From a virus: a DNA stretch of 64,000 nucleotides. The DNA lies in IMG/VR virus record IMGVR_UViG_3300027917_000032, positions 23,929 to 87,928 of that record. One strand, given 5' to 3'. Position numbers and translations under genes: made by a program. Below are positions 21,079 through 51,692 of this stretch, one piece after another. Position 1 is the first letter of the stretch; every line of letters starts with the position of its first letter. Under the pieces are notes generated by a model. That model ran no database searches and had not been told where the DNA came from. It saw only the letters and a list, made by a program, of their open reading frames with translations.

Positions 21079-22013
21079 TCAGTCTCCAGATTAAGGTTTC
21101 CGCCAATTTCTCTTAACTCTCGAAGCTGTTGGCGTTCCAGCTTCCTACGCTCCATTTCATGCTCACGTTGCTGTAGACGTGCCTTGAACATTTCTTCTTG
21201 CCGTACCAGGCTTTTAGGGTCTAGGTGCAAAATCCATTCCAAACACGCCATCCAACCATCAGAAGGCGTCTCGGCTTTTCTCAAACGAAGGATCAAACCT
21301 TGCACCTGCGGGTTTTTGTATTCGCTACAAATCTGGGTGAACTTTCGCAGGTAGGGGATTGGGTCTGGTCTGTTTATGTTGTGTTCATCAATGAACTTTC
21401 TCTGTGCTGCCTCACGGTACTCCCGCATCACCTGATGGAACATTGTCTTAAATTCTGCACACGTCAGCGTGACCGCGCTCTCGATGTAAGCATCTTGCAA
21501 GCAATAAGGTGTCTTGGCTAACAGGCAGGCGGATTGAAGCGGGATTTCGCCCCGCCGCAACATTTCTTTGTAAGCAGGCCGCAGATCATTTAAGTCTAAA
21601 ATCTGCCGCACCCATGAGGGGCTTTTACGAATCAGCCGTGATAACTGCGGAACAGTCATGCCAGGATTGTTGTGCAAAATCCGTTCCAAACGAACAGCAA
21701 ATTCTACCGGTCTTGTTTCAGGTCGGATTCCATTAGCCTGAAGCTGTATGACTAGCATCTCGTCATCGGTCATCTCTTGTATTTGACACGGGATTGTCTC
21801 CATGCGCAACTGCTTACAGCAGTGATAACGCCAATTACCCTCAACAACCTCGTACTCAGCGGGGCCGATAAACCGCACGAGAATGGGCTGCAACACGCCT
21901 TTGTCACGAATCGAGTCTAACAACTCATTGTACTCAACGCTCTCTGTGCGTACCGGACGGAGTAAACACCGGGGGCTGCGTATTCGATCCAAGTGTATCT
22001 CCGCTAGTCGCAT
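21075..22013 (-). CDS. ParB/Spo0J-like protein
   Basis: GVLQPILVR, VVEGNWRY, HTH VPQLSRLIRKSPSWV; GGAGG RBS before ATG 22013. Confidence 0.88.
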   Translation of the reverse strand: MRLAEIHLDRIRSPRCLLRPVRTESVEYNELLDSIRDKGVLQPILVRFIGPAEYEVVEGNWRYHCCKQLRMETIPCQIQEMTDDEMLVIQLQANGIRPETRPVEFAVRLERILHNNPGMTVPQLSRLIRKSPSWVRQILDLNDLRPAYKEMLRRGEIPLQSACLLAKTPYCLQDAYIESAVTLTCAEFKTMFHQVMREYREAAQRKFIDEHNINRPDPIPYLRKFTQICSEYKNPQVQGLILRLRKAETPSDGWMACLEWILHLDPKSLVRQEEMFKARLQQREHEMERRKLERQQLRELREIGGNLNLETE

Positions 22014-22019
22014 CCTCGT

Positions 22020-22047
22020 TCCTCCATAGTATATGGTAGCTACGTTT
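22020..22047 (-). promoter_or_regulatory. conserved 28-bp operon-head motif, copy 1
   Basis: AAACGTAGCTACCATATACTATGGAGGA. Confidence 0.75.
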
Positions 22048-22124
22048 CCGAGTTCTTGGCGCGGTAAAACAGATTTTTCTGGAAAAAGTTTAGCCCCTCC
22101 CTTGAAAGTGGCAATACTGAACAT

Positions 22125-22560
22125 TTGACTATCCACACTATCAGGGGTTTTCGACGCGGCAGATAGGATAAAAACTACCACCTTTGCGGGGTTCATCCAC
22201 TCGCCATCCTACCTAATCTGAGGGGAAGGATAGAAATGACCATCACAGAAATCCCGTATTTTCTAGGCCGAATGCGCGCACGACGCGGCAGATAGGATGA
22301 AAATGAGTGGATGGCGCAGAAAACTCTCCCTACAGATATTTTCTTTCTTCTTGTCTCTACAGACCTTTTTTTATTCTCTATCCACTCAATTCTATCCACT
22401 GGTGTTATCCGACTACTAGGAGAAAACCATCATAGCTAGTGTTTTGACGTTTTGACGCGGCGGCGTTTCGAGTGGATGAACCCCTCAGACTAGGTAGGAT
22501 AAAATGCCGTTTGAGTGGATGAAACCCCTGAAAGTAGTAGTTTCCATCCTACGCGGTGTC
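22125..22560. repeat. iteron-rich non-coding element A (putative origin)
   Basis: many AGTGGAT(A/G) and TAGGAT(A/G) repeats in both orientations around an AT-rich core; inverted homolog at ~63290-63740. Confidence 0.7.
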
Positions 22561-22618
22561 GCGTACTTAAACCTGGGGGGTTTTCACTTTTTTCAAAATC
22601 GCGTGCAACAAATCACGC

Positions 22619-22646
22619 AAACGTAGCTACCATAGACTGTGGAGGA
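22619..22646 (+). promoter_or_regulatory. conserved 28-bp operon-head motif, copy 2
   Basis: AAACGTAGCTACCATAGACTGTGGAGGA (2 mismatches to copy 1). Confidence 0.75.
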
Positions 22647-22675
22647 TGACGATAGCCTCAAGCTGGAGATACTTG

Positions 22676-25423
22676 ATGACGAAGATTCTGGATGCTTTTG
22701 GGAATTTCTTTCGGGCAGTGGTGTTGCCAAAACACAACAACCCCGATTTCTTTTGCCGCTGGTTGGACAACTCACCAGATTTGGAAACCCAACTTCTTGT
22801 TGCTCCGGGTAAAGGCTACCCTGTTGAGGGCTACCGTAATGTGTGGACAGACGGAGAACAGGAATGGTTTAACATACGGTATCCCAAGAACGCTATGGGT
22901 GAGCCCTACTGGCGCGACCGCGAGCTTAACTTCGACCTGGGTGAGCATTGGCTTGGCATTGGTACGACGTGGTGGGATTGGACAAAGCGTGAGTCCGTCG
23001 CGTGCGCCTTCGACTTTGATGAAGTCACGTCACACGCGCCCGGCGTTGGTGTATCTGACGATGAACTAGACAAGGTGAAGACCCGCGCCTGCGAGCTTGA
23101 CTACGTTGAAGTCTTGAAATCAACGGGTGGCGGCGGCCTTCACATTTATATCTGGTTTGATGAAAATGACCGGCCCCGCACGGAGAATCATACAGAGCAC
23201 GCTGCCATCGCCCGCGCCATGCTCGGCAAGCTCAGTACCGACGCAGCGTTCGACTTCGGCAGTCACTTGGACGTGTGCGGCGGGAATATGTGGGTGGCCC
23301 ACCAGAAAATGTTTGGCACAGATGGGTTTGAATGTGTCAAAAAGGCCACACGGCTGTTGACAAATAAAGACATCCCGCCGAATTGGCGGGACCATCTTGA
23401 AGTAATCGGCGGAAAATCCACAAAAGTGCGCGTTGTTGGCGTCACCGATAGCGGCGAAGAGATTGACGAACAAGACCCACTGGCCGAATTGACAACTGCT
23501 CACCCCAAGGTTCCGCTGGATGAAACACATAAGAAAATCATCGCAGACTTGGAAATGACAGGCGCATCCTGCCTCTGGGTGCCCGATCACAATTTGGTAC
23601 AGACACACACTTGCGCTTTGAAAACTGTGGCCGAACAGTGGGCCGATCAAGGCCACGCCATGCGTGGCTTCTTCAACACGCTGTCGCCGGGAACCGATTT
23701 GGGAAAACCCAACTGCTTTATGATCCCGAAACGGGACGGGGCTTTCATGGTTTTTCGGTTCGGTAAAGGTACGTTGGAGCATGGGCTTTGGAAACAGGAT
23801 CGGCAGGGGTGGACGTGGTGTAGTTACAACAAAGCTCCCGACCTCTATGAAGCGGCTATTGCTCTTGGTGGTGCAGAGTTAGAAGGCAACAAGGGGTTCC
23901 ACTTTGGCTCACTTGTAAATGCCGGGCAAGTCGTTAAAGCTATCGGCTCTAAGCTCTCGCTCCCTGCTGGGAATGATTACGACCAGCGAACTGCAATCCT
24001 CCGTAGGAATAATGACGGCAGGCTCGTGGTAGAGATTGACCGTTGGGAAGGTGATACCGGCTTCGACAACTGGAACGGGCAGAAGAAGAACAAATGGATT
24101 AAGGTGTTCAATATCTGTGTGGACACTACGGAAGCCGACGATGACTACAGCCGCTATGATACTCTCGTTCGCTCCTGTCGCTCCCCTTCAGACGCCGACG
24201 CCGGTTGGCGGATTCGTGTCAACGGAGGGAGTTGGATCAAACACCCGCGAGAGAATGTGACCAGCGTTCTCAGTTTGGTCAAACCGCCCGACGTGCAAAC
24301 AAACAACATCCTGGGCACAGCGATTATGAATCAGTGGATCATGGTCTGCAAGCCTTTTCACGAAGAGCACCCTGGCGGTCGTCAATGGAATCTTGGGGCT
24401 CCTCAGTTTATCTACCAACCCGCAGTAATCGAGGATGAGGAGAAACCGCAGCACCCGCACTGGGATCGTGTCATGGCCCACTGCGGGGAGGAACTAACAC
24501 CGATCATTCGGAAATCCTCGTGGTGTCGCCACTGGGGTATTTTCAATGGCTGCGACTATCTTACTGCTTGGATTTCATGCTTGCTGCGGGAGCCATTTGA
24601 GCCGCTCCCATACCTCTTCATGTACGGCCCACAAAACTCGGGTAAGTCAATCTTCCATGAGGCAATCAGTTTACTTATTACTGGTGGCGTGGTTAAAGCC
24701 GACCGTGCTTTGACCAATGCCAGCGACTTTAATGGTGAACTTGCAAATGCAGTCTTGGGGGTAGTTGATGAAGTAGATATTGCGAAGGCTGGCCCCGCCG
24801 TCTACAACAAAATCAAAGAATGGACGACGAGCCAGTATATTAGCATCCACGCTAAGTATCAACAAGTCTACCAACAGCGGAATTGCTTGCACTTTGTTCA
24901 AACCGCAAATTTCCGTAATAGTTGCCCAATCTTTCCAGGGGACACGCGGATAACGGCGATGTATGTTGGGCCTTTGTTGGAGGAGATACCTAAGCCTCGC
25001 CTCACTCAATTGCTAGAGGCAGAAGCCCCGAACTTCATGGCGACCTTGTTGGGCATGTCACTTCCGACTTCGGAGACACGCCTACGCCTGCCTATTCTCG
25101 ACACAGTTGGTAAGGAACAAGCGGCGGAAGGGAACAGGGATTCCTTGGAGGAATTTATCGCGGACTCGTGTTACGAAGTGCCGGGCTGCAAAGTGCCTCT
25201 CAAGACATTCTATGAAACATTCAACGATACGTTGTCTGCTTTCGAGTCGGCACGTTGGACAAAGACACGGGTACGGCGCTCGCTGCCCGATAATTTTCCT
25301 GTTGGTAAGAGCACGGGAGGTCAGTTGTATGTTGGCAACATCAGTTTAATCGAGAAAGAGATTGATCCCAAGGCTCCTCGGTATGTTGCCAGTGGCTCTT
25401 ATTTGAAACTGGAAGAGGAGTGA
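22676..25423 (+). CDS. AEP primase-polymerase fused to D5-like SF3 helicase
   Basis: FDFD and STGGGGLHIY primase motifs; Walker A GPQNSGKS, Walker B VVDE, motif C QTAN. Confidence 0.88.
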   Translation: MTKILDAFGNFFRAVVLPKHNNPDFFCRWLDNSPDLETQLLVAPGKGYPVEGYRNVWTDGEQEWFNIRYPKNAMGEPYWRDRELNFDLGEHWLGIGTTWWDWTKRESVACAFDFDEVTSHAPGVGVSDDELDKVKTRACELDYVEVLKSTGGGGLHIYIWFDENDRPRTENHTEHAAIARAMLGKLSTDAAFDFGSHLDVCGGNMWVAHQKMFGTDGFECVKKATRLLTNKDIPPNWRDHLEVIGGKSTKVRVVGVTDSGEEIDEQDPLAELTTAHPKVPLDETHKKIIADLEMTGASCLWVPDHNLVQTHTCALKTVAEQWADQGHAMRGFFNTLSPGTDLGKPNCFMIPKRDGAFMVFRFGKGTLEHGLWKQDRQGWTWCSYNKAPDLYEAAIALGGAELEGNKGFHFGSLVNAGQVVKAIGSKLSLPAGNDYDQRTAILRRNNDGRLVVEIDRWEGDTGFDNWNGQKKNKWIKVFNICVDTTEADDDYSRYDTLVRSCRSPSDADAGWRIRVNGGSWIKHPRENVTSVLSLVKPPDVQTNNILGTAIMNQWIMVCKPFHEEHPGGRQWNLGAPQFIYQPAVIEDEEKPQHPHWDRVMAHCGEELTPIIRKSSWCRHWGIFNGCDYLTAWISCLLREPFEPLPYLFMYGPQNSGKSIFHEAISLLITGGVVKADRALTNASDFNGELANAVLGVVDEVDIAKAGPAVYNKIKEWTTSQYISIHAKYQQVYQQRNCLHFVQTANFRNSCPIFPGDTRITAMYVGPLLEEIPKPRLTQLLEAEAPNFMATLLGMSLPTSETRLRLPILDTVGKEQAAEGNRDSLEEFIADSCYEVPGCKVPLKTFYETFNDTLSAFESARWTKTRVRRSLPDNFPVGKSTGGQLYVGNISLIEKEIDPKAPRYVASGSYLKLEEE

Positions 25424-40294: not shown

Positions 40295-41047
40295 TTACGA
40301 GCAGTCAGTGTTGTTGCTTCGCGTGATTGTAGCCTCGCTAGCATTACACCGGCCAGTCACCGCAATAGTAGCTTCACCCAGGTCGAACTCAAGTGTCTCC
40401 CAACGGAAGTCAGGGAACACAACATCCTCATCCTCCACGTTTCCGCAAGGAACGCAGTGAAGGATTCGCATATCGACCGCATAGGGTTCACACAAGTCGC
40501 TTGAACTAGACACCCATTCAGCCGCCCCGCCTGTGCCTTTGACGGCATCGACAGCGGTAACAGTCTCACCGGTGCCCGTCTTGATTTGCTCATAGACAAA
40601 TTCAAGCGAGACTTCAAGCGGTTGCTCATCGCCTTCACGAACGGTATCAAGGTCGCCCCGATCCAGAAGGTACTCGTATTCCTTGGATTCTGTCCAAGTG
40701 ACGTTACCTTCACCGACTGTCACTTCCATCTGTTGAGACTGGAATGTAATGACGTCGTTTTGCGCAGGGGTGTTAGCGCCCCACGCCGGGGTAAACTCAA
40801 TGTTGTTCGTCGGGCTAGTCGTAGTAGGCGTCCGAGCCGTGACCGTATAAACGGTCGTGTTGTTAACCGTATTGACTGTGAAGCGAGCCCCAACCGGCAC
40901 CAACTGGGTGTCGGACGAGTTCAGGTTGACGGTGTTAATATCCGTATCCGTGTCCGTCGCACCCGGAGACGCTTCGGCAATATTGGCCGTGCCACTCAGT
41001 CCATCCTTCAAAAGAATGGTGGCATTTCGTAGCTCAATTCGGGCCAT
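40295..41047 (-). CDS. major tail (tube) protein
   Basis: position, acidic/Thr-rich composition, followed by terminator and chaperone. Confidence 0.7.
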   Translation of the reverse strand: MARIELRNATILLKDGLSGTANIAEASPGATDTDTDINTVNLNSSDTQLVPVGARFTVNTVNNTTVYTVTARTPTTTSPTNNIEFTPAWGANTPAQNDVITFQSQQMEVTVGEGNVTWTESKEYEYLLDRGDLDTVREGDEQPLEVSLEFVYEQIKTGTGETVTAVDAVKGTGGAAEWVSSSSDLCEPYAVDMRILHCVPCGNVEDEDVVFPDFRWETLEFDLGEATIAVTGRCNASEATITRSNNTDCS

Positions 41048-41553: not shown

Positions 41554-42050
41554 TATGTAACCTCATGCTCAACATCAAGCAAATCTTCCACCTTCATGTG
41601 GATGATCTGTTCTGGGCGTACACCCTTTACTTCCTTACCCACAATGATCCAAGCCGTATGCTGCTCAAATTCACTGATGCTTTTAATATCGTAACGGCGA
41701 CCGTTGTAAGTCAACCAGTCATCCATTACAATCTCATAAGAATCAGGCAGGTCGCGGGTGTCAAGAATGAACGTCCGTGTTCCAGCATCGTATGTCCCGC
41801 CGTAGACAAACATCTTGTTAGCCGAAATTGCGGAAATTCCTTGGACGACTTCCCGCTTTATTTGTACGGGAAGTACAATAGCTTTTCTAACTGTTGTGAC
41901 AGTTCTGGTGTACGTTTTCACGCCCGTTTCATAATCCGTGGCTGCCGCGCCGAGTTTATAAACATCGACACGACCACCATACTGTCTCTTCAGACTGTAT
42001 AGTGTGCGCCGGATAAAACGGTTCATTTGACGATTCACACCGCTAGCCAT
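41553..42050 (-). CDS. putative head closure/stopper protein
   Basis: DYETG...YNGRRYDI pattern, synteny. Confidence 0.55.
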   Translation of the reverse strand: MASGVNRQMNRFIRRTLYSLKRQYGGRVDVYKLGAAATDYETGVKTYTRTVTTVRKAIVLPVQIKREVVQGISAISANKMFVYGGTYDAGTRTFILDTRDLPDSYEIVMDDWLTYNGRRYDIKSISEFEQHTAWIIVGKEVKGVRPEQIIHMKVEDLLDVEHEVT

Positions 42051-42360
42051 CGCTTCTCATCCTCGGGGGTGCTTCCTGATCTTCGACATACGGACAGCGA
42101 TCACATAATCGCTCCGTCGCCCGAGCTACCCAACTCAAACATTCGGCATTTTGAGCTAAGGCCGTTGTTGAACGTTCAACGAGATTTACCAAAGTTTCAC
42201 GTTGGTAGTCTTCGAGTTTTTCAACTCGATTTGACAGGGCATCTTCGCGTTTCCAATCGCGCCAGATAAAAAACAACACGATACCGACCAGCGGGCCAAA
42301 ATTTGCGGCCAACTGCGTCAGAATATCGGCTCCAGTCGTTGTTGCAAAAAGATGCTCCAT
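42043..42360 (-). CDS. single-TM holin-like membrane protein
   Basis: FGPLVGIVLFFIW followed by coiled coil. Confidence 0.45.
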   Translation of the reverse strand: MEHLFATTTGADILTQLAANFGPLVGIVLFFIWRDWKREDALSNRVEKLEDYQRETLVNLVERSTTALAQNAECLSWVARATERLCDRCPYVEDQEAPPRMRSDG

Positions 42361-42419: not shown

Positions 42420-43838
42420 TTACGCAAGCAGCACGCAACCCAGGTCTTCATCGAGCAGCGCGACGCCGCAAAGCAGGTCGAGCGTAACGATAGTACCTTG
42501 GCTGGTAATATCGTACTGCATGGTCACACGCATGGCAACGTCGTTGTACGCACCGACGCTGGACCGGACACCCAGAGCGGTGTTCGGCAGCGACAGCGGA
42601 CGGCTGACGAAAGCCAGCGCATTCCGATGGAACGCGAGGTTCATGGACCCAGACGGGCCAGGGAACGCATCCTGGTTGTCAACCAGAGCGACCTCAAGCG
42701 GCCGATCCAGAAGCACCTTCGTATCATTCCCATCAGCCTCAGTGCTGATGACTGTATAGGTCCGACGATTGGCACCCACGCCAAACGCAAGCAGTTGGCC
42801 CTGCGAGACGTAGGTGGCATTACCACCCGCACCCTGCGACTCAAGTTGAATCTGCTTGGAGTAGCCAGCAGCATACCCCGCAGCATTATCAACCTGGCAA
42901 GCCTTGTAGACTGTGACCGCAGCGTTAGCCGCAACCGCAGACTCCAGACCGCTCACAAGCACGATGCTGTTGGTGTTTGTGCCGTCGTCCGTAGCACTGG
43001 AAATCACATGGGGCTTCCCTTCCGTGGCGACTGTGACGAACTCACCGTCAATCGCTGCGTAGTTAAGCACCACGCAGTTAAGGGTCGTCTCGCCAACGGG
43101 CTCCACTTCCTGCATCTCGCCGTCAACGTAATCCGTCGCGGACTTCAACGTGTAAGGCACGTTTTGATCCATGTAGGTATCAAACCCGAGCACACGACCG
43201 AGACTGGCATCCCGCAGAGCGGTGCCGTCGTCGCCACGCTTCTCAGCGCTGATGAACAACTCAGTCTTGAGGAGTTCGGTTTCCGCTTGAGGCGAAAGCA
43301 CAAGGTTACGGCCAGAGGCGTAAGCCTTGTTGACATTCATCTTCTCGCGGGCTTCGAGCAGGTAATCCTTGGCGTTGCTCTCGTCCATTTCGCCAAGAGC
43401 GCCAACACGGTTAGCAAGAAACTCATGCGCCTGACCGCACAGAATACGGTCAACCGAGCTAGCCATTTCTTGCGCGGCCGGGTCAAGGTAGTAGTCCACC
43501 AAATCTTGGAAAGACTTACTCGCCTCACCATCCTTGATGGTGAACGTCACATAGATGTGCTGATCCAGCGGAACCTGCACGTTTGTAGCCACCGCATCCT
43601 GGCTCACAACATCGTCTGCGTCCGTCTTACGAGCAGCAACAAACTGATTGGGCCGGCGCGTGTTCACAACGTCGCCAAAGTTGGCAACTTCCATGCTGAA
43701 ATCCCGGTGGACCAAGCGGGCCATGACCATGTTCTCTTCGAGAATCGCAAGACCCTCTTGAGCCCAAAGCTCGGGAATCAGCGCATCGTTGTCGTTGGCG
43801 TAGCAAGCCAACGTCGGAGTGCTGTAAAGCAAATTCAT
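42420..43838 (-). CDS. major capsid protein (P22 gp5-like) with insertion domain
   Basis: IPELWAQE, GDVVNTRRP, GRVLGFDTY, NLAFHRNA, LDLLCGV. Confidence 0.88.
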   Translation of the reverse strand: MNLLYSTPTLACYANDNDALIPELWAQEGLAILEENMVMARLVHRDFSMEVANFGDVVNTRRPNQFVAARKTDADDVVSQDAVATNVQVPLDQHIYVTFTIKDGEASKSFQDLVDYYLDPAAQEMASSVDRILCGQAHEFLANRVGALGEMDESNAKDYLLEAREKMNVNKAYASGRNLVLSPQAETELLKTELFISAEKRGDDGTALRDASLGRVLGFDTYMDQNVPYTLKSATDYVDGEMQEVEPVGETTLNCVVLNYAAIDGEFVTVATEGKPHVISSATDDGTNTNSIVLVSGLESAVAANAAVTVYKACQVDNAAGYAAGYSKQIQLESQGAGGNATYVSQGQLLAFGVGANRRTYTVISTEADGNDTKVLLDRPLEVALVDNQDAFPGPSGSMNLAFHRNALAFVSRPLSLPNTALGVRSSVGAYNDVAMRVTMQYDITSQGTIVTLDLLCGVALLDEDLGCVLLA

Positions 43839-43933
43839 AGCGCTTCTCCTTTGTTAAGATTTAGCCCTTTCACTAGGGCGAGGAAAACAGTTTTCGTCGC
43901 CCACTGGGCAACTTGACAACATGGCCCCTTTCT

Positions 43934-44860
43934 TTAACGCCGCTTGCGAAGTCCCAAGGCTTCAGGGTTTTCCTTACGCAACTTCCGAAACTGCTCAGGC
44001 GTGAGCTTGGCAGGATCAACGCGACCACCATCACCCGATGTAACGCCACCGGTAGCGGAGCCCGATCCGACGCCGCTGACAACATTGGACTTAAAGAGAT
44101 TGCCAAACAAATTTGGCAGTTCCTTCATCCGTTGCACAGCCTCTTCGGGCGTTCTCAAAGTCATTACTTGCTCCCCCGTGGCTTCATCAATGTCGGGGAA
44201 ATCAATCACCGGTGTAAAATCACCGAGGCCGTTGCCCGCTTCATCCGTTCGTTCCTGCATCTTGGTCATCGGACGAAGAAGCCCGACGATTTGATTTGGA
44301 TTGAACGCTTCGGCGGCAATAGCCGCATCTTGGAGTGACCGATCAATTTGCGAACCTTTGTAAAGTGTCTCCCATCGGGACGCACTTTCTTTAAGCTGGC
44401 CCAAATCGCTCTTGAACTTTTCGGCTTGTTGCTTCCGCTCATACTCAAGACGCTGCTTTTCGGTCATTTGCGACTTTCGCAGGTCTTCGAGTTCGGCTTC
44501 CAACTTCTGCCGCTGTTCCAAAGCGAGATTTTTGTCGGCTAGAATCTCTTTGTAGCCCGACTCCAACTTCTTCAGTTTATCTTGGTGCTTTCGCCGGTCT
44601 TCAGCAAGAAACCGATTCAAGTCATCTTGCGTAAATTTAAGGGAAACAGCGTCATCAGCCTCTTGCTTCTTCTGGCGTGCTTCGGCTGCCTTACGCTCTG
44701 CTTCCTTAGCAGCCTCCTCGGCCGCCCGCCTCGCTGCCGTGGCAAAATCACCCAAACCTGTCCCGTCACCATCGCCGTCGCCGTTGCCATCACCATCGCC
44801 GTCGCCATCATAACACGCCAGCGTTGCCAACGACCAGTACAGTTCATTCAACTCGTTCAT
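43934..44860 (-). CDS. capsid scaffolding protein
   Basis: GD repeat, FTQDDLN, coiled coil, C-terminal LTPEQFRKLRK; precedes capsid gene. Confidence 0.8.
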   Translation of the reverse strand: MNELNELYWSLATLACYDGDGDGDGNGDGDGDGTGLGDFATAARRAAEEAAKEAERKAAEARQKKQEADDAVSLKFTQDDLNRFLAEDRRKHQDKLKKLESGYKEILADKNLALEQRQKLEAELEDLRKSQMTEKQRLEYERKQQAEKFKSDLGQLKESASRWETLYKGSQIDRSLQDAAIAAEAFNPNQIVGLLRPMTKMQERTDEAGNGLGDFTPVIDFPDIDEATGEQVMTLRTPEEAVQRMKELPNLFGNLFKSNVVSGVGSGSATGGVTSGDGGRVDPAKLTPEQFRKLRKENPEALGLRKRR

Positions 44861-44879: not shown

Positions 44880-45389
44880 CTAGTCAGCCCTGCTTACTCG
44901 TACATCCTCGGAAGACCGCAAAAATGGGCGCAGGTATCTCCATGCTGCGGCGCTTGGAACCCCGTTCATCAGATGTTCAATCTGCGTATGGTTCCGATTA
45001 TACGTTGTTCTTACCGAGGCAATCCCCTGGCTGACCACTCCCAGGTTTTCCAATTCAAGGTCAGGATCAACTCCATCCAGCAGATTATACGCAATCTCCC
45101 AGCACGCAACTTTAATTTCGTGCGGAACATCGGTATCTTCATCTCGCGGGAACTCCAATTCCTGCGATACTTGTGCGGCTCTCAAATCTTCTTCATAGCC
45201 TTCGCCATAATTCTCTTCATCATAGACGGTGGCTTTTTGACCTTTGAAGTTTAGGGCGTCAATGATCGCGGTCGCACGAATCAGCGCCTTTTCACGATCC
45301 GCTGTACTCGCATCCGACCACGCTTCCTCATGGAGCCTGTATGAGAAATATTCATTCGCTTCGGTAATCGTGCCATAGTACGAGTACAT
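44880..45389 (-). CDS. head-tail adaptor (DnaT_2-like)
   Basis: YGTITEANEYF, ALIRAT, QELEFPR. Confidence 0.7.
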   Translation of the reverse strand: MYSYYGTITEANEYFSYRLHEEAWSDASTADREKALIRATAIIDALNFKGQKATVYDEENYGEGYEEDLRAAQVSQELEFPRDEDTDVPHEIKVACWEIAYNLLDGVDPDLELENLGVVSQGIASVRTTYNRNHTQIEHLMNGVPSAAAWRYLRPFLRSSEDVRVSRAD

Positions 45390-45401: not shown

Positions 45402-45695
45402 TTATACTACGAGAAAACTGTAATCAACATCCGCCACATCTCGAATAACATAAATGAGACGTGGATCAGCGATGGGAAATTCGCAATCGCAGCCAGGGTC
45501 CAGTCTAAACCCCGTGCTAGAAGTTACGCCTTCTTTGCCAACATACATTTTGTTGGCGGCGTCGTGATTTCGTATCTTAACCCCGTAAAAGGCTCTCCAC
45601 GGTTGACTTGTCAAGGCCGACGCTGCGACACCTGCGGTGCCGTTGCCCGTGTAAAAATCCTCTTGGACACTTTCTAAAACTTTTACTGGTTTCAT
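45402..45695 (-). CDS. small virion protein
   Basis: MYVG..VTSSTGFRLDPG jelly-roll-like pattern. Confidence 0.55.
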   Translation of the reverse strand: MKPVKVLESVQEDFYTGNGTAGVAASALTSQPWRAFYGVKIRNHDAANKMYVGKEGVTSSTGFRLDPGCDCEFPIADPRLIYVIRDVADVDYSFLVV

Positions 45696-45698
45696 GGT

Positions 45699-47495
45699 TT
45701 ACTCCTTGTCGTGGCCTTCGCCGCGTACTGGTTTTTCGGTGGTGTCGCTTAGTGTAGTGTCCGTTGCCTCTGCTCGTTCTTCCCTCCCCTCAGTCGCCGG
45801 ATCACCTGACAAATCATCCACGCCTCGCGCCGCTGGATTGTCGTCGGCTCCCTGGGCTTCCGCGATGCGTTTAACTCGCTCGACATGATCTATACGAGCT
45901 TGTAAGTATTCATCCTCATCGAAGCCCAGAGCCACAGATGCAGTTTTCTCCCCTACAAGCCCAGCCTCCTTTGCGCGGATGATTACCTCGGGATCGCTGG
46001 TCGTGTAGTCAGCCCGATCAATTTCAGAGAAGATTTTGTCCATTGTATCTGTGCTAACGCGACCGCCCAAAAGAGTAATGACAATGTTTTTTGATAGCTC
46101 TTTCTTGATCGTGTTACCCGGCACAGCGAACATTAACTCCGACAAGTCATCTGCCTCTTTAATTCGATCTTGGTCAGTTTTCAGGCTGTAGCGTTCTGGG
46201 TACTTGATAGTTGCTACCTGCCGACGATTAACGGCTCTTTCTTCGTAAGCTGCCCAGTGTTCCGCAATTCCTCGCTCGCCACCTTCCAAGATTAAGCCGA
46301 TGTAAGACAAACCGGACTCCAAACCTTGATCGCTCATTTTAAGAGCTTCGGCTGACGTGGCACGCTTACCTATCTTGTTTGTCACGGCAAGATTAACGAG
46401 CTTTCTAATATCGTCTTCCAACTTTTCCTGTAGCTTCAGGGACGCCTCCAATGGCTCGGGAGACGGGTGAATAAAGTCGGGTCGGTCTGTATTCAAACCA
46501 TAAATCCGACCGTGAGTTGCGCCAACCCTGATTTCTTTCCCCGCCGCTCGTTGACCCCCGGACATAGCCGAGCCATCGGGGTTGTTCATGTGCTTCAGGT
46601 GGTCGCCCACGGCTCGCGTGTCTTGCTGCTCGGTGTAGAACGGAAAATTTGCTTTCAAAGCATACGACACATCGCTGGATGTAAGATTCACCAACGCTGC
46701 CTGATGTTGCGACACGTCTTTCAGCAGGCTGTCACCAATATCCAACAAGACAAAAGGAATACGAGTCAAGTTCAAGACGATTGGCGTCCCATCAGAAGGC
46801 TCACCAGTTGGAGTGATCGGCTGTGATTCATCGTCGTAAAACTGCACGTTTACCAGCCCAGTCGCCTGGTCGATCCAGATTAGGCGGTATCGTTCAAACT
46901 CGCCGGAAGGTAGTTGAATATTGTAAATATCGTGGGAGGCATAATCAAGCCCAATATCCCGCAGTAAGAGGGCTTGAAAATCACTGGGATGTGTCGGATC
47001 ACTGGCTGACCAAGCCAGAATATCTTCGACTTGGTACATATAAAGGTAGGGACGAGCACCGCCCACGTCAGCCAACGTCGGGCCGCTGAGTTGCGGCATA
47101 TCGACATAGACGCCAACTTTTCCCATCACAAGTAGTTCCGTCAACACGTTAATACCTAGAAAGCCGCTCATAGAGCTTCCCCGCATATCAACGCCACCCA
47201 TCTCACCGGCAACGGCAACCCGATAATTCTTGGACCCACCAGACCTTACAATATCTCGCATACGTTGAAAAATCGCATTACGAATGTCATTGACAGCCGC
47301 TTTGGCGTAGGTTGGGGTGGGTGTGATACTGCGACGCGCATTATACTCGGCGTCTGTCTCTCGTTCGCTGAACTTTTGGAGATACAGATGAGTATAATCC
47401 TCACCACCATTGTATGTCTCGCGCCACGTTGTCCAGTACCCGGCGTCATGGAAGTACGTGGGGTGTCGTGTATCGTAAACTGAAAAGGATGCCAC
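45699..47495 (-). CDS. portal protein
   Basis: follows terminase; YLQKFSERE..YNARR, LTRIPFV, SAEAL. Confidence 0.82.
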   Translation of the reverse strand: MASFSVYDTRHPTYFHDAGYWTTWRETYNGGEDYTHLYLQKFSERETDAEYNARRSITPTPTYAKAAVNDIRNAIFQRMRDIVRSGGSKNYRVAVAGEMGGVDMRGSSMSGFLGINVLTELLVMGKVGVYVDMPQLSGPTLADVGGARPYLYMYQVEDILAWSASDPTHPSDFQALLLRDIGLDYASHDIYNIQLPSGEFERYRLIWIDQATGLVNVQFYDDESQPITPTGEPSDGTPIVLNLTRIPFVLLDIGDSLLKDVSQHQAALVNLTSSDVSYALKANFPFYTEQQDTRAVGDHLKHMNNPDGSAMSGGQRAAGKEIRVGATHGRIYGLNTDRPDFIHPSPEPLEASLKLQEKLEDDIRKLVNLAVTNKIGKRATSAEALKMSDQGLESGLSYIGLILEGGERGIAEHWAAYEERAVNRRQVATIKYPERYSLKTDQDRIKEADDLSELMFAVPGNTIKKELSKNIVITLLGGRVSTDTMDKIFSEIDRADYTTSDPEVIIRAKEAGLVGEKTASVALGFDEDEYLQARIDHVERVKRIAEAQGADDNPAARGVDDLSGDPATEGREERAEATDTTLSDTTEKPVRGEGHDKE

Positions 47496-47507: not shown

Positions 47508-49175
47508 TCAGAGAAAAGTTCCAATGTCTCTGTTTGTTACTATTCCTGCGGCGAGCGGAAGACCAATCTCGGCATACGTCAGGGCGTGTGTGAAGTGATC
47601 GGCTCCGGTGTTGAGATACACTGCACGGGGGTTGTTTAGTTCATCGCGCTCATAAGTTCGCACTACGTTTTTGATGTGATCTTGAAACTCCATGCTGGTG
47701 TCCGCAGGCGTCCAAATGCGGCCGCTATGAAAACGTCCAAGAGCAGCATCAAGCCAGTTTGTTCTGTCAACAGTGGCGATTGGGGCACCGCCCTCCTCCT
47801 CTGACATTTGCATTTCCTTACCAGTTACACCGCGTCGGTATCGGCACAAAGTAACGTAGCCGGGAAACCGTCGAGCAAATCGCCGCGCATCATTGATTTG
47901 TGGGTCGGCATCAATTACGCAGGCTAAAACTTGCCACTCCCGCATAAGACGATCAAGCTCCTCGAAATTATCGCCTGGAATCTTTCCTTCCCAAAGCAAC
48001 TTGCCAAACGCCGCCGCATTTACGTCGTGACCGAAGGTATCCAAAATGTATTCCATTACAACAATGTAATTCCATTTACCTTGGTCAATTCCGAGTGTGA
48101 TACAACGCTCACCACCAACTTGCGGACGCGGGTCATTCTTTGAGTAACCTGCCCTAGAGTTTTCTAGCTCGGTATCTGTCACCAGGCCGCCAGCCGGGAT
48201 GTATGGTTGACCTAATTTGGAGTTATTGAACTCCACCATCGCCGCTTCATCGCCAAGTCCCCGAAAATGTGCTTGTACTAATTCACCGGGGGATACCGTG
48301 AAGCTGTAAAGCTGGTTAATATAGAAGCTGCGATGGTCATTGGCACTTGGTTCCGTAGGTTCCCATTTGCAGTTCTCTACGTTTAACCAACTTGCTTTGT
48401 CACGATGTTCTAGTTTACTTCCACACTCTTTACACTTCAGATAGGACTCCATGCACCGCCTATCTGATACTGTTTCACCGTAAATCTCAAGGCAATCCGG
48501 CCAAACAAGCTCGGTCCAACGACTACAGTGCGGGCACTTAAACATGAAATGTTCTTGCGTGCCTTGTTCATAAAGTTTATGGACGCCATATTTAGGCACT
48601 GTGGGAGTTGAAATCGCCCAGATTGCTTTCTCCTCGTGTCCTGACAACCGCTCTAAAGCCAACCAGATTTGTTTCTGATCCATTTCATTCACTTCGTCAA
48701 GGATCAGTGTTGACACTGGGATTGATTTCAGGTTGGAGTCCCCGCGTGAACCTCGAATGTAAAGGTTTGTTGTTCCCGCTTGCTTGAGTCCAATGGTATT
48801 GGTACTGGTGAAAAGACCTTTTAAGTAGTCACTGTGCATCAACGCTGTGTTAAAACGTGCTTTCGCAAAGTCGCTTGCATTGTTGAATGTGGGCAGGACG
48901 TAAAGTACATCTTTGCGAAGCACGTCCACGGTGTAGAAAGCTCGATTGATGGCGACTTCCGTCACGCCCATTTGAGCCGCCTTCATGGCCGTGTTATACG
49001 ACGTTTCTGAATCGTGAATTTCTACACACCAAGGATGGCGGTCAAACCCAAAGGGACCAGGAAACGGCTCTCCCATGATGCGGCGATGCGTGGCCCAGCG
49101 TGAACAGGAAGTCATGGTACGACTGGTAATGCCGTCCGCGATAGCTTCCCGAAATGCGTCCACCAGCTTGCTCAT
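47508..49175 (-). CDS. terL: terminase large subunit (lambda GpA-like)
   Basis: KAAQMGVTE, LILDEV, ISTPT, CPHC..CKECG, LGIDQG. Confidence 0.92.
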   Translation of the reverse strand: MSKLVDAFREAIADGITSRTMTSCSRWATHRRIMGEPFPGPFGFDRHPWCVEIHDSETSYNTAMKAAQMGVTEVAINRAFYTVDVLRKDVLYVLPTFNNASDFAKARFNTALMHSDYLKGLFTSTNTIGLKQAGTTNLYIRGSRGDSNLKSIPVSTLILDEVNEMDQKQIWLALERLSGHEEKAIWAISTPTVPKYGVHKLYEQGTQEHFMFKCPHCSRWTELVWPDCLEIYGETVSDRRCMESYLKCKECGSKLEHRDKASWLNVENCKWEPTEPSANDHRSFYINQLYSFTVSPGELVQAHFRGLGDEAAMVEFNNSKLGQPYIPAGGLVTDTELENSRAGYSKNDPRPQVGGERCITLGIDQGKWNYIVVMEYILDTFGHDVNAAAFGKLLWEGKIPGDNFEELDRLMREWQVLACVIDADPQINDARRFARRFPGYVTLCRYRRGVTGKEMQMSEEEGGAPIATVDRTNWLDAALGRFHSGRIWTPADTSMEFQDHIKNVVRTYERDELNNPRAVYLNTGADHFTHALTYAEIGLPLAAGIVTNRDIGTFL

Positions 49176-49179
49176 TCAT

Positions 49180-49584
49180 TTACTCTTCATCTTCCTCTTC
49201 TGCGGCTTCCCAAATACGCTCCCGTGGCTCCCAGAGTCTTTCGGGTGCCTCTTCCGGCTCGGGTTCCGGCTCGGGTTCCGGCTCGGGTTCCGGCTCGGGT
49301 TCCGGCTCGGGTTCCGGCTCGGGTTCCGGCTCGGGTGGCGCTAGCATCGCTTCCAAATCTTCCGGCTTATAACAGACCCATTGATTATCTTTCCACATCC
49401 GAGAGTGACCGCGAACACCGGCGTCATCCCGGCTTTCACAGACGATGGTAAGTATGTCATCTTCGTTCGCGGGAAATTCCACCAGCGGTGTTGAACTGCC
49501 TCGGAGATTGACCACGCCCCCATCTTTCATGTATAGCGTAGCGTAATATCGCGGGTAGTGCAGAAACGGACAAGCAATTTGCAT
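49180..49584 (-). CDS. hypothetical protein with PE repeat
   Basis: GAGGAG RBS; (EPEP)n. Confidence 0.65.
   Translation of the reverse strand: MQIACPFLHYPRYYATLYMKDGGVVNLRGSSTPLVEFPANEDDILTIVCESRDDAGVRGHSRMWKDNQWVCYKPEDLEAMLAPPEPEPEPEPEPEPEPEPEPEPEPEPEPEEAPERLWEPRERIWEAAEEEDEE
49252..49335. repeat. 12-bp tandem repeat x7
   Basis: (TTCCGGCTCGGG)7. Confidence 0.95.
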
Positions 49585-50684: not shown

Positions 50685-51692
50685 TCACCACAGTATATAA
50701 TCGGGAACGTCTCGCTGCGGATAGCCAACGTACCCGCTCAATGCTATACTGTCCCCTTGCTTCATGGCCGCGTCCACTGTCGCTGCGTCACACCAATAGC
50801 TTCCCGCAGGTTGCTCATGGCGTGTTGGTCCGCTGACCCAATTCTCGCCCCAGGAGTTTACTACCAGGGCTCCCGGTCTGCGGTATTCATCATCGACGCC
50901 CAAAATAACCTGGGCGTGATACCAAGGTTTTCGGCGTCGTCTCAAAAACCCATCTTTGTCCCGTTTTGTCCAGAAGCCGATGTTACAACACATCACAACC
51001 GGATAGCCATTCGCCACGGCATCCCGGCACTCTTCCCACGACCGAACCAGGGTACACGTTTGTAGCGGGTGGAGCTTGCACAATGGTTCAAGTGCGTCAG
51101 GCACGCCCGCTCCATACCGGCCCATTTGACGGGCCTTTGCTCCACTGTATGTTGTAAAATCGTACTCGCCATCAAGGTAGGACTGCCGCAAGAGAACGCC
51201 CCAATCTCGACAAAACTCGGCCGCCAGCGTGCCGGTAGTGCCATCGTATGTGAGCTTTCTACGACTCATCCCGCCTGTTTCAATACGCGCGCCGGCGTAA
51301 ATTATCTCCGTGGCCGCTTTAGCAACCCAGCGTTCAGGCATGTTAAACGAGGCGATTCGTACCGCTGTAAGCACGTCAATTCCTAAGCCAAACGCCTGTC
51401 CAACACAGTCACCTACGGTTTGTTTATGAGGCTGAAGGGGCCAACCAGTGACTTGCTCGTAGGCTTTCCACAAGAAAACCTTACGACCTTTCCCGGTGTC
51501 TTTAATTTGGCTATTGTACTGACTTAAAAATGGCCGCCGATGCCGCTGAATAAAGCGATCCCGGATTGTTGCGTCATCGACCCATCCAGCGTACAGTGGC
51601 GAGTCGTCATCTTCCCCCGCCCGCAGGAAGGAACCTGTAGACAGGCTTCCAATGCCGCCCAAAATGAGCTTCAACACATCACGTCGCTTCAT
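50685..51692 (-). CDS. papain-like (C1) cysteine peptidase with Tat signal
   Basis: Q..GDCVG, HAQVILG, VNSWG catalytic motifs; MKRRDVLK twin-arginine leader. Confidence 0.85.
   Translation of the reverse strand: MKRRDVLKLILGGIGSLSTGSFLRAGEDDDSPLYAGWVDDATIRDRFIQRHRRPFLSQYNSQIKDTGKGRKVFLWKAYEQVTGWPLQPHKQTVGDCVGQAFGLGIDVLTAVRIASFNMPERWVAKAATEIIYAGARIETGGMSRRKLTYDGTTGTLAAEFCRDWGVLLRQSYLDGEYDFTTYSGAKARQMGRYGAGVPDALEPLCKLHPLQTCTLVRSWEECRDAVANGYPVVMCCNIGFWTKRDKDGFLRRRRKPWYHAQVILGVDDEYRRPGALVVNSWGENWVSGPTRHEQPAGSYWCDAATVDAAMKQGDSIALSGYVGYPQRDVPDYILW

Follow-up and report, generated by a model that had tools for sequence, protein, structure and literature searches.

Matched N-terminal leaders on the scaffolding and coat proteins of an uncultured Planctomycetota phage lineage, and a candidate phage-encoded peptidase

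The head genes and their shared leader

We analysed a window of 64,000 nucleotides, positions 23929-87928 of the virus record IMGVR_UViG_3300027917_000032 (87,928 bp, 52.7% G+C, CheckV completeness 86%), and in particular two neighbouring head genes, those of the scaffolding protein and the major capsid protein, whose products begin with a similar short leader peptide. The capsid N-terminus reads MNLLYSTPTLACY/ANDND and that of the scaffold MNELNELYWSLATLACY/DGDGDG (the slash marks the end of the leader), and both leaders end in TLACY. The reading frames and their sequence bear out the original prediction, which had been made from the DNA letters without database searches and had described both frames and the leader common to their products. 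Shine-Dalgarno sites, AAGGAG for the capsid and AGGAG for the scaffold, lie 6-7 nt upstream of the ATG, which indicates that the leaders are translated. The shared ending is written ACG TTG GCT TGC TAC in one case and ACG CTG GCG TGT TAT in the other, with four of the five synonymous positions differing, and thus the likeness exists at the protein level and is not a DNA repeat.

When the first 20 residues of capsid and scaffold were compared, the Smith-Waterman score was 40, against a best score of 21 with the 119 other predicted gene starts in the record, and no other gene start in the 88-kb record carries the leader motif. An AlphaFold2 model of the capsid (mean predicted local distance difference test score, pLDDT, 77) shows no structure for residues 1-16, where pLDDT is below 50, and places the start of the N-terminal arm helix at residue 22. 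Since the leader is disordered in the model and yet conserved, as described below, it behaves as a linear motif and not as a part of the fold.

The head module is encoded on the minus strand, in the order terminase, portal, an open reading frame (ORF) of 97 amino acids (aa), adaptor, scaffold, capsid, membrane protein and tail genes (Table 1). The interval between portal and capsid holds the 97-aa ORF, the Ad1-type adaptor and the scaffold, in agreement with the earlier claim that no prohead protease lies there, and searches for Prp, S78, ClpP, S49 and S77 proteases gave no match anywhere in the phage record. The capsid passes the PF11651 profile test (116.5 bits versus a cut-off of 24). The scaffold is laid out as leader, acidic linker, coiled-coil region and basic C-terminal tail, and its family assignment is supported by a weak phrog_6663 match and by PF06810 on one homologue. 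Farther downstream, head-tail and tail genes extend to a 1433-aa tape-measure protein, and the tail-tube-like protein among them had no PHROG match.

Table 1. Head-module features in the window, and the candidate peptidase gene that lies just outside it
Feature	Position	Strand	Basis or remark
Terminase large subunit	47508..49175	-	PF05876, PF20454; phrog_675 2.6e-90
Portal protein	45699..47495	-	phrog_145 4e-30
97-aa ORF, conserved, 3' of the portal gene, no family	45402..45695	-	Pfam and PHROG searches without match
Ad1-type head-tail adaptor-like protein, 169 aa, not a protease	44880..45389	-	phrog_477 2.2e-18, PF20557
Scaffolding protein, 308 aa	43934..44860	-	Composition; gene immediately 5' of that for the capsid
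Scaffold leader, codons 1-17 (MNELNELYWSLATLACY)	44810..44860	-	
Acidic Gly/Asp-rich low-complexity linker, directly behind the scaffold leader	44747..44809	-	
Major capsid protein, 472 aa, P22-coat / N4-gp56-like	42420..43838	-	PF11651 1.7e-33; phrog_283 2.7e-58
Capsid leader, codons 1-13 (MNLLYSTPTLACY), preceding the conserved ANDNDALIPELW N-terminal arm	43800..43838	-	
Small membrane protein, 105 aa, single-pass	42043..42360	-	..FGP..VLFFIWRDWKRED..; directly 3' of the capsid gene
Probable major tail (tube) protein, without leader, starts M/ARIELRN	40295..41047	-	Tube assignment from gene order only
Candidate leader peptidase, 169 aa	record 22364-22873 (L023:2364-2873), 1,056-1,565 nt before window position 1	-	

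Three further genes of this region deserve mention. The small membrane protein behind the capsid gene, an unusual presence inside a head module, is kept at the same position in most related loci and prophages, and it might serve as a holin or as an anchor during assembly. The 97-aa ORF has relatives of 97-98 aa, of 195-198 aa and, in locus L019, of 592 aa, which share the N-terminal domain and differ by C-terminal extensions; because of these extensions, the comparison suggests a decoration or fibre protein. Lastly, a 134-aa protein with about 15 Glu-Pro repeats (49180-49584, minus strand) is encoded directly 5' of the gene for the terminase large subunit, at the place expected for the small subunit.

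The leader among related phages

A search with the capsid found 1839 homologues, and the leader was read in the best 120 of these (54-94% identical) and likewise in the best 120 scaffold homologues; about 120 loci holding both genes were collected. All of the full-length capsids among the best 120 have a leader of the general form MN[LF][LFY]...[LV][AV]C[YF], which sits directly before the nearly invariant ANDNDA[LM]IPE[LI]W and varies in length from 6 residues (MNLLCY) to about 17, with its end fixed. The scaffolds start ..P.LAC[YF]/[ED]G and continue into an acidic, Gly-rich stretch of low complexity. Incomplete gene calls aside, the motif is therefore kept across both sets of homologues, which was the check that the original prediction had proposed. 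Across phages, the leaders end in [C/L/S/F/V]-[Y/F/H], with variants such as LACY, SLY, TFY, LVY, TVH and even SMIAA, and their most constant feature is the aromatic last residue. Many phages, in turn, have L, S, F or V where others have the Cys, and since it can be replaced, obligatory thiol chemistry or lipidation is ruled out. We also rejected a lipoprotein signal peptide with an L-A-C lipobox, given leaders as short as 6 residues, the lack of a basic n-region and the replaceable Cys.

Among 50,697 phage records, the closest capsids of cultivated phages, which infect Gordonia, Streptomyces and Vibrio, are 24-33% identical and leaderless, and the scaffold had no match at all. The leaderless capsids start exactly at the leader junction, for instance M/ANDFLTP in Gordonia phage VanLee and M/ANTLEA in Vibrio phage MAR10, and the scaffold of VanLee, which is leaderless too, opens directly on the acidic stretch. 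Thus, the leader is an extension that was added before the normal N-terminus.

The leader drifts between phages and is matched between the capsid and the scaffold of one phage. For instance, both leaders end in INTFY in locus L010 and in NYYSLICF in L195, while the capsid and scaffold leaders end, respectively, in APVQFACY and SPVQLACY in L192 and in SLLPTMSM and SLIPMLSM in L190, the last two sharing the pattern SL.P.(.)SM. In loci L054, L083, L094, L102 and L103, Leu replaces Cys in both proteins (xLY, or xLF in one capsid). We quantified this agreement in 46 representatives with less than 80% capsid identity, using local alignment scores and 10,000 permutations. Leaders of the same phage scored 30.5 on average versus 18.3 across phages, the phage's own scaffold was the top match for 19 of the 46 capsids, and the observed sum was reached by 0 of the 10,000 permutations (p <= 1e-4). 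A DNA repeat or gene conversion as the cause of the likeness was rejected: among identical aligned residues in 30 phages, 94 of 216 use the same codon, compared with 91.8 expected from codon usage, and there is hence no excess codon identity.

In one relative, L011, the leader is found on a third protein. The L011 homologue of the tail-tube-like protein (L011:2873-3388; 45% identity, E 1e-47) starts MKIWRSVY/AVIDLKD, and the L011 capsid starts MKRCTKIWFSVY/ANDND, so that the tail protein carries the leader of that capsid before its own normal M/A start. In a scan of about 100 related loci, this was the only confirmed further carrier of the tag; among the other three matches scoring at least 30, one (L086, at -1565) resembles the scaffold of that locus, just beyond the position filter. 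A Prp motif has likewise been noted on the major tail protein of one staphylococcal phage (PMC5744158). A tagged tail protein would be unexpected if the leader served purely in the pairing of scaffold and coat.

Hosts and a candidate peptidase

Relatives of the capsid are embedded in large contigs or chromosomes (0.14-6.6 Mb) of metagenome-assembled genomes from Thermoguttaceae, Pirellulales and Planctomycetaceae, which identifies the hosts as Planctomycetota. Other relatives (L010, L011, L013, L019 and L003) lie on short contigs binned as Patescibacteria, Methanomassiliicoccales, an uncultured archaeon, Methanoregula and Anaerolinea; such contigs are probably of phage origin and wrongly binned, rather than evidence for such hosts. 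In five Planctomycetota host genomes that bear prophages of the lineage, ribosomal protein L27 starts M-AHKKGQGSS, without an N-terminal extension, and the best match to Prp (PF04327) reaches 13.5 bits versus a cut-off of 27. The idea that the motif might derive from an N-terminal extension of a host ribosomal protein, which the original prediction had put forward, found no support in these genomes, and L27 mimicry combined with host Prp was rejected. The leaders do not belong to the staphylococcal L27-mimicry system, and the resemblance to it is one of function and not of membership.

A candidate for a cutting enzyme is instead encoded by the phage itself, shortly before the start of the window (Table 1). 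It is a 169-aa protein with the N-terminus NPNYWSCLPTSFAMV, and its W10, C12, GHxG33-36, E54, H126 and D139 are invariant in 13 homologues. Searches of these 13 members against Pfam, including its C39 models, and PHROG gave no match, and neither did a sequence search of the PDB. In the AlphaFold2 model (pLDDT 94), the Cys lies at the start of a helix and the His and Asp lie on strands. In fold, it most resembles PCAT1, ComA and LahT, which are C39 peptidases that act on leader peptides (Z 12.3, root-mean-square deviation 2.7 Å, 124 residues); next come pseudomurein endoisopeptidase (Z 11.9) and, with Z 11.3, staphopain. By this model, the protein has a papain-like, C39-like fold with a Cys-His-Asp triad, and as a putative cysteine peptidase it is the best candidate for an enzyme that would cut the leader. 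In addition to being the closest structural match, with the Cys at a helix N-terminus, C39 peptidases also remove short N-terminal leaders. In contrast to them, the candidate has no Pfam C39 profile match, stands alone without fusion to an ABC transporter, and has virion proteins as its putative substrates, with leaders that end in Cys/Leu-Tyr/Phe and not in Gly-Gly.

The family comprises 1,746 cluster representatives (E <= 1e-3), nearly all of them stand-alone proteins of 145-185 aa. A profile found the peptidase in all eight of the capsid-bearing relatives that are at least 90% complete, and conversely, the six complete records found via the peptidase all carry this capsid family. In seven prophages, the peptidase gene lies 30-45 kb from the capsid gene. 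We looked for cases in which leader and peptidase are decoupled, but every complete record has both. Prophage G003 has no peptidase and also lacks the gene next to it, and is therefore probably incomplete, and prophage G004 has a degraded remnant of the peptidase.

Three other observations touch on this enzyme or its fold. The peptidase and a sigma-70-like/helix-turn-helix protein form a conserved pair in all of the relatives examined (record 21650-22873, L023:1650-2873, minus strand). Record G044, considered as a peptidase phage with a leaderless coat, was discarded as an example, since its "coat" is a protein with a twin-arginine translocation (Tat) signal and no insertion domain, and is unlikely to be the virion coat. 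This 338-aa P22-coat-like protein (L204:500-2316) has the twin-arginine signal MNNRRDFLKTLGLGAAG, is preceded by another Tat-signal protein, and may be an exported, domesticated capsid-like protein. Within the window, a 335-aa protein (50685-51692, minus strand) combines a Tat-type signal, KRRDVLKL, with a weak match to Peptidase_C39_2 (E 0.015). It is encoded beside small membrane proteins, upstream of the terminase, and probably belongs to a lysis cassette; this papain-like protein was rejected as the leader peptidase because it is exported and lies in a lysis-like cassette.

What the leader may do

In Staphylococcus phage 80alpha, capsid and scaffold have leaders of 13 and 14 residues that are removed by the host protease Prp (PMC5744158). 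As in that phage, the same two proteins share a short N-terminal peptide here, of 13 and 17 residues, whose aromatic last residue precedes Ala (or an acidic residue), there is no prohead protease in the head module, and the motif is also found on a tail protein in some relatives. The earlier view of the leader as distinct in sequence and yet analogous to that of 80alpha in placement, length and ending therefore stands. The two systems differ in that the hosts of the present lineage have neither an L27 N-extension nor Prp, and in that the leader sequence is unrelated, co-evolves phage by phage instead of being fixed, and precedes a P22/N4-gp56-like coat; the candidate enzyme, moreover, is encoded by the phage and belongs by its fold with papain (C39-like). 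With P22, the phage has in common the PF11651 coat and a separate scaffold gene just upstream, but the coat and scaffold of P22 share no leader and are not processed. In phage T4, internal proteins carry a capsid-targeting sequence that is removed by the prohead protease gp21. This too is a short N-terminal tag that is common to several virion-related proteins and thought to be removed, but the present phage lacks a serine prohead protease, whether of the gp21 type (S77) or another, and the tag is on scaffold and coat and not on cargo.

The reading that we tentatively favour, while regarding it as far from settled, is that of a removable assembly leader that a phage-specific partner recognises and that is clipped at its aromatic residue or beside it, with the C39-like peptidase of the phage as the best candidate for the cutter. 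A Planctomycetota siphophage lineage would have placed a portable leader before the normal N-termini of scaffold and coat, and of a tail-tube-like protein in at least one relative. The recognition motif would be linear, namely a hydrophobic stretch, often with Pro, which ends in a small or hydrophobic residue plus Tyr or Phe and is followed by Ala or acidic residues. The scaffold and coat of one phage would show the same peptide to a single, phage-specific partner, and the leader would be needed in folding or procapsid assembly and would then be clipped at the aromatic residue or one residue after it. The clipped coat would begin at about ANDND, the natural N-terminus of the leaderless relatives. 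From these comparisons, we infer the cutting of the leader, the cut site and the identity of the enzyme; host Prp is not the cutter, and the best candidate is the 169-aa papain-fold peptidase. That the peptidase itself is the cutter is a more doubtful proposition than the reading as a whole. It is similarly doubtful, although conceivable, that the stand-alone C39-like family represents a new class of virion-maturation protease that recognises a co-evolving leader on scaffold, coat and sometimes tail-tube proteins, which would amount to a phage-private counterpart of the host-dependent Prp system.

The divergence of the peptidase is relevant here. In the clade whose leaders are shortest (MNLYLCF), the peptidase is by far the most divergent (33-38 bits versus 169-224), with a capsid body about as similar as that of other clades. 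In a partial Mantel analysis of 36 phages, the correlation between leader and peptidase given the capsid body was weak, at r = 0.26 (p about 0.001), although such tests overstate significance on tree-structured data, which is one of several points that weigh against a leader cut by this enzyme. All members of one clade have both leader and peptidase and phages outside it have neither, so that finding the two together counts as a single evolutionary event. C39 enzymes cut after Gly-Gly and not after an aromatic residue, and the fold relatives of the peptidase include peptidase domains of phage lysins as well as pseudomurein endoisopeptidase. The peptidase gene lies in the early/replication region, always beside the sigma-70-like gene, and in one cluster (P0392, 401 aa; 11 members) an in-frame fusion joins the two, with a read-through linker between them; given this linkage and fusion, the peptidase could have another role, in transcription control or host takeover. 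The support for cleavage is all comparative, with no cultivated member of the lineage among the 50,697 phage records. Furthermore, assembly of 80alpha requires the scaffold leader but does not depend on its removal (PMC5744158), and a leader can hence function uncut.

This last point speaks equally for an alternative that we consider possible, if rather unlikely, namely that the leader is an assembly tag that is never cut. Such a tag would dock in a common site on the coat, the portal or a chaperone, or would couple scaffold to coat through leader-leader pairing, and the peptidase would serve elsewhere, for example with the neighbouring sigma-like factor, to which its gene is linked and sometimes fused. 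Cleavage is not generally part of maturation in P22-like coats, the record has no classical prohead protease, and the co-variation within each phage suits a binding interface as well as a protease site. Nevertheless, the tagged tail-tube homologue of L011 is hard to square with scaffold-coat pairing in the procapsid, and an uncut tag does not sit easily with the strict addition of the leader before an N-terminus that leaderless relatives use directly. The predicted disorder of the leader, outside the fold, would also speak against it, and a hydrophobic tail of 13 residues on about 400 coat subunits needs room in the mature shell.

We regard it as improbable that the leader is cut by a Planctomycetota host protease other than Prp, in which case it would mimic the processing site of some host protein. 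The precedent of 80alpha and the restriction of all identified hosts to one phylum would fit this explanation, but in the five host genomes, where L27 and Prp were looked at, L27 lacks an extension and no Prp was found, and among phages of the same host families the leader drifts widely and in step in both proteins, as one would sooner expect with a phage partner that evolves along with it than with an unchanging host enzyme. Hardly credible at all is a likeness without function (chance, a miscalled start, recent gene conversion or a shared mRNA-level element), for although this one phage taken by itself offers just five identical residues, both starts have Shine-Dalgarno sites, the motif is kept family-wide, the score of 40 stands against a maximum of 21, and the synonymous codons differ with no excess codon identity.

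To our knowledge, head maturation in tailed phages uses serine prohead proteases or, in staphylococcal phages, host Prp, and our literature search found no paper on such a leader in phages of Planctomycetes, nor on a phage-encoded cysteine prohead protease. If the removable-leader reading is true, it would add a third solution to head maturation, in a very large and wholly uncultured lineage of Planctomycetota phages: a private leader on both head proteins that drifts in step with what is probably a phage cysteine peptidase of the bacteriocin-leader-peptidase fold. It would give a function to about 1,700 proteins that lack annotation and would supply a sequence rule for predicting mature N-termini. 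It would also offer a natural system for the co-evolution of a protease with multiple substrates, and would reopen the question, raised by 80alpha, of what purpose such leaders serve.

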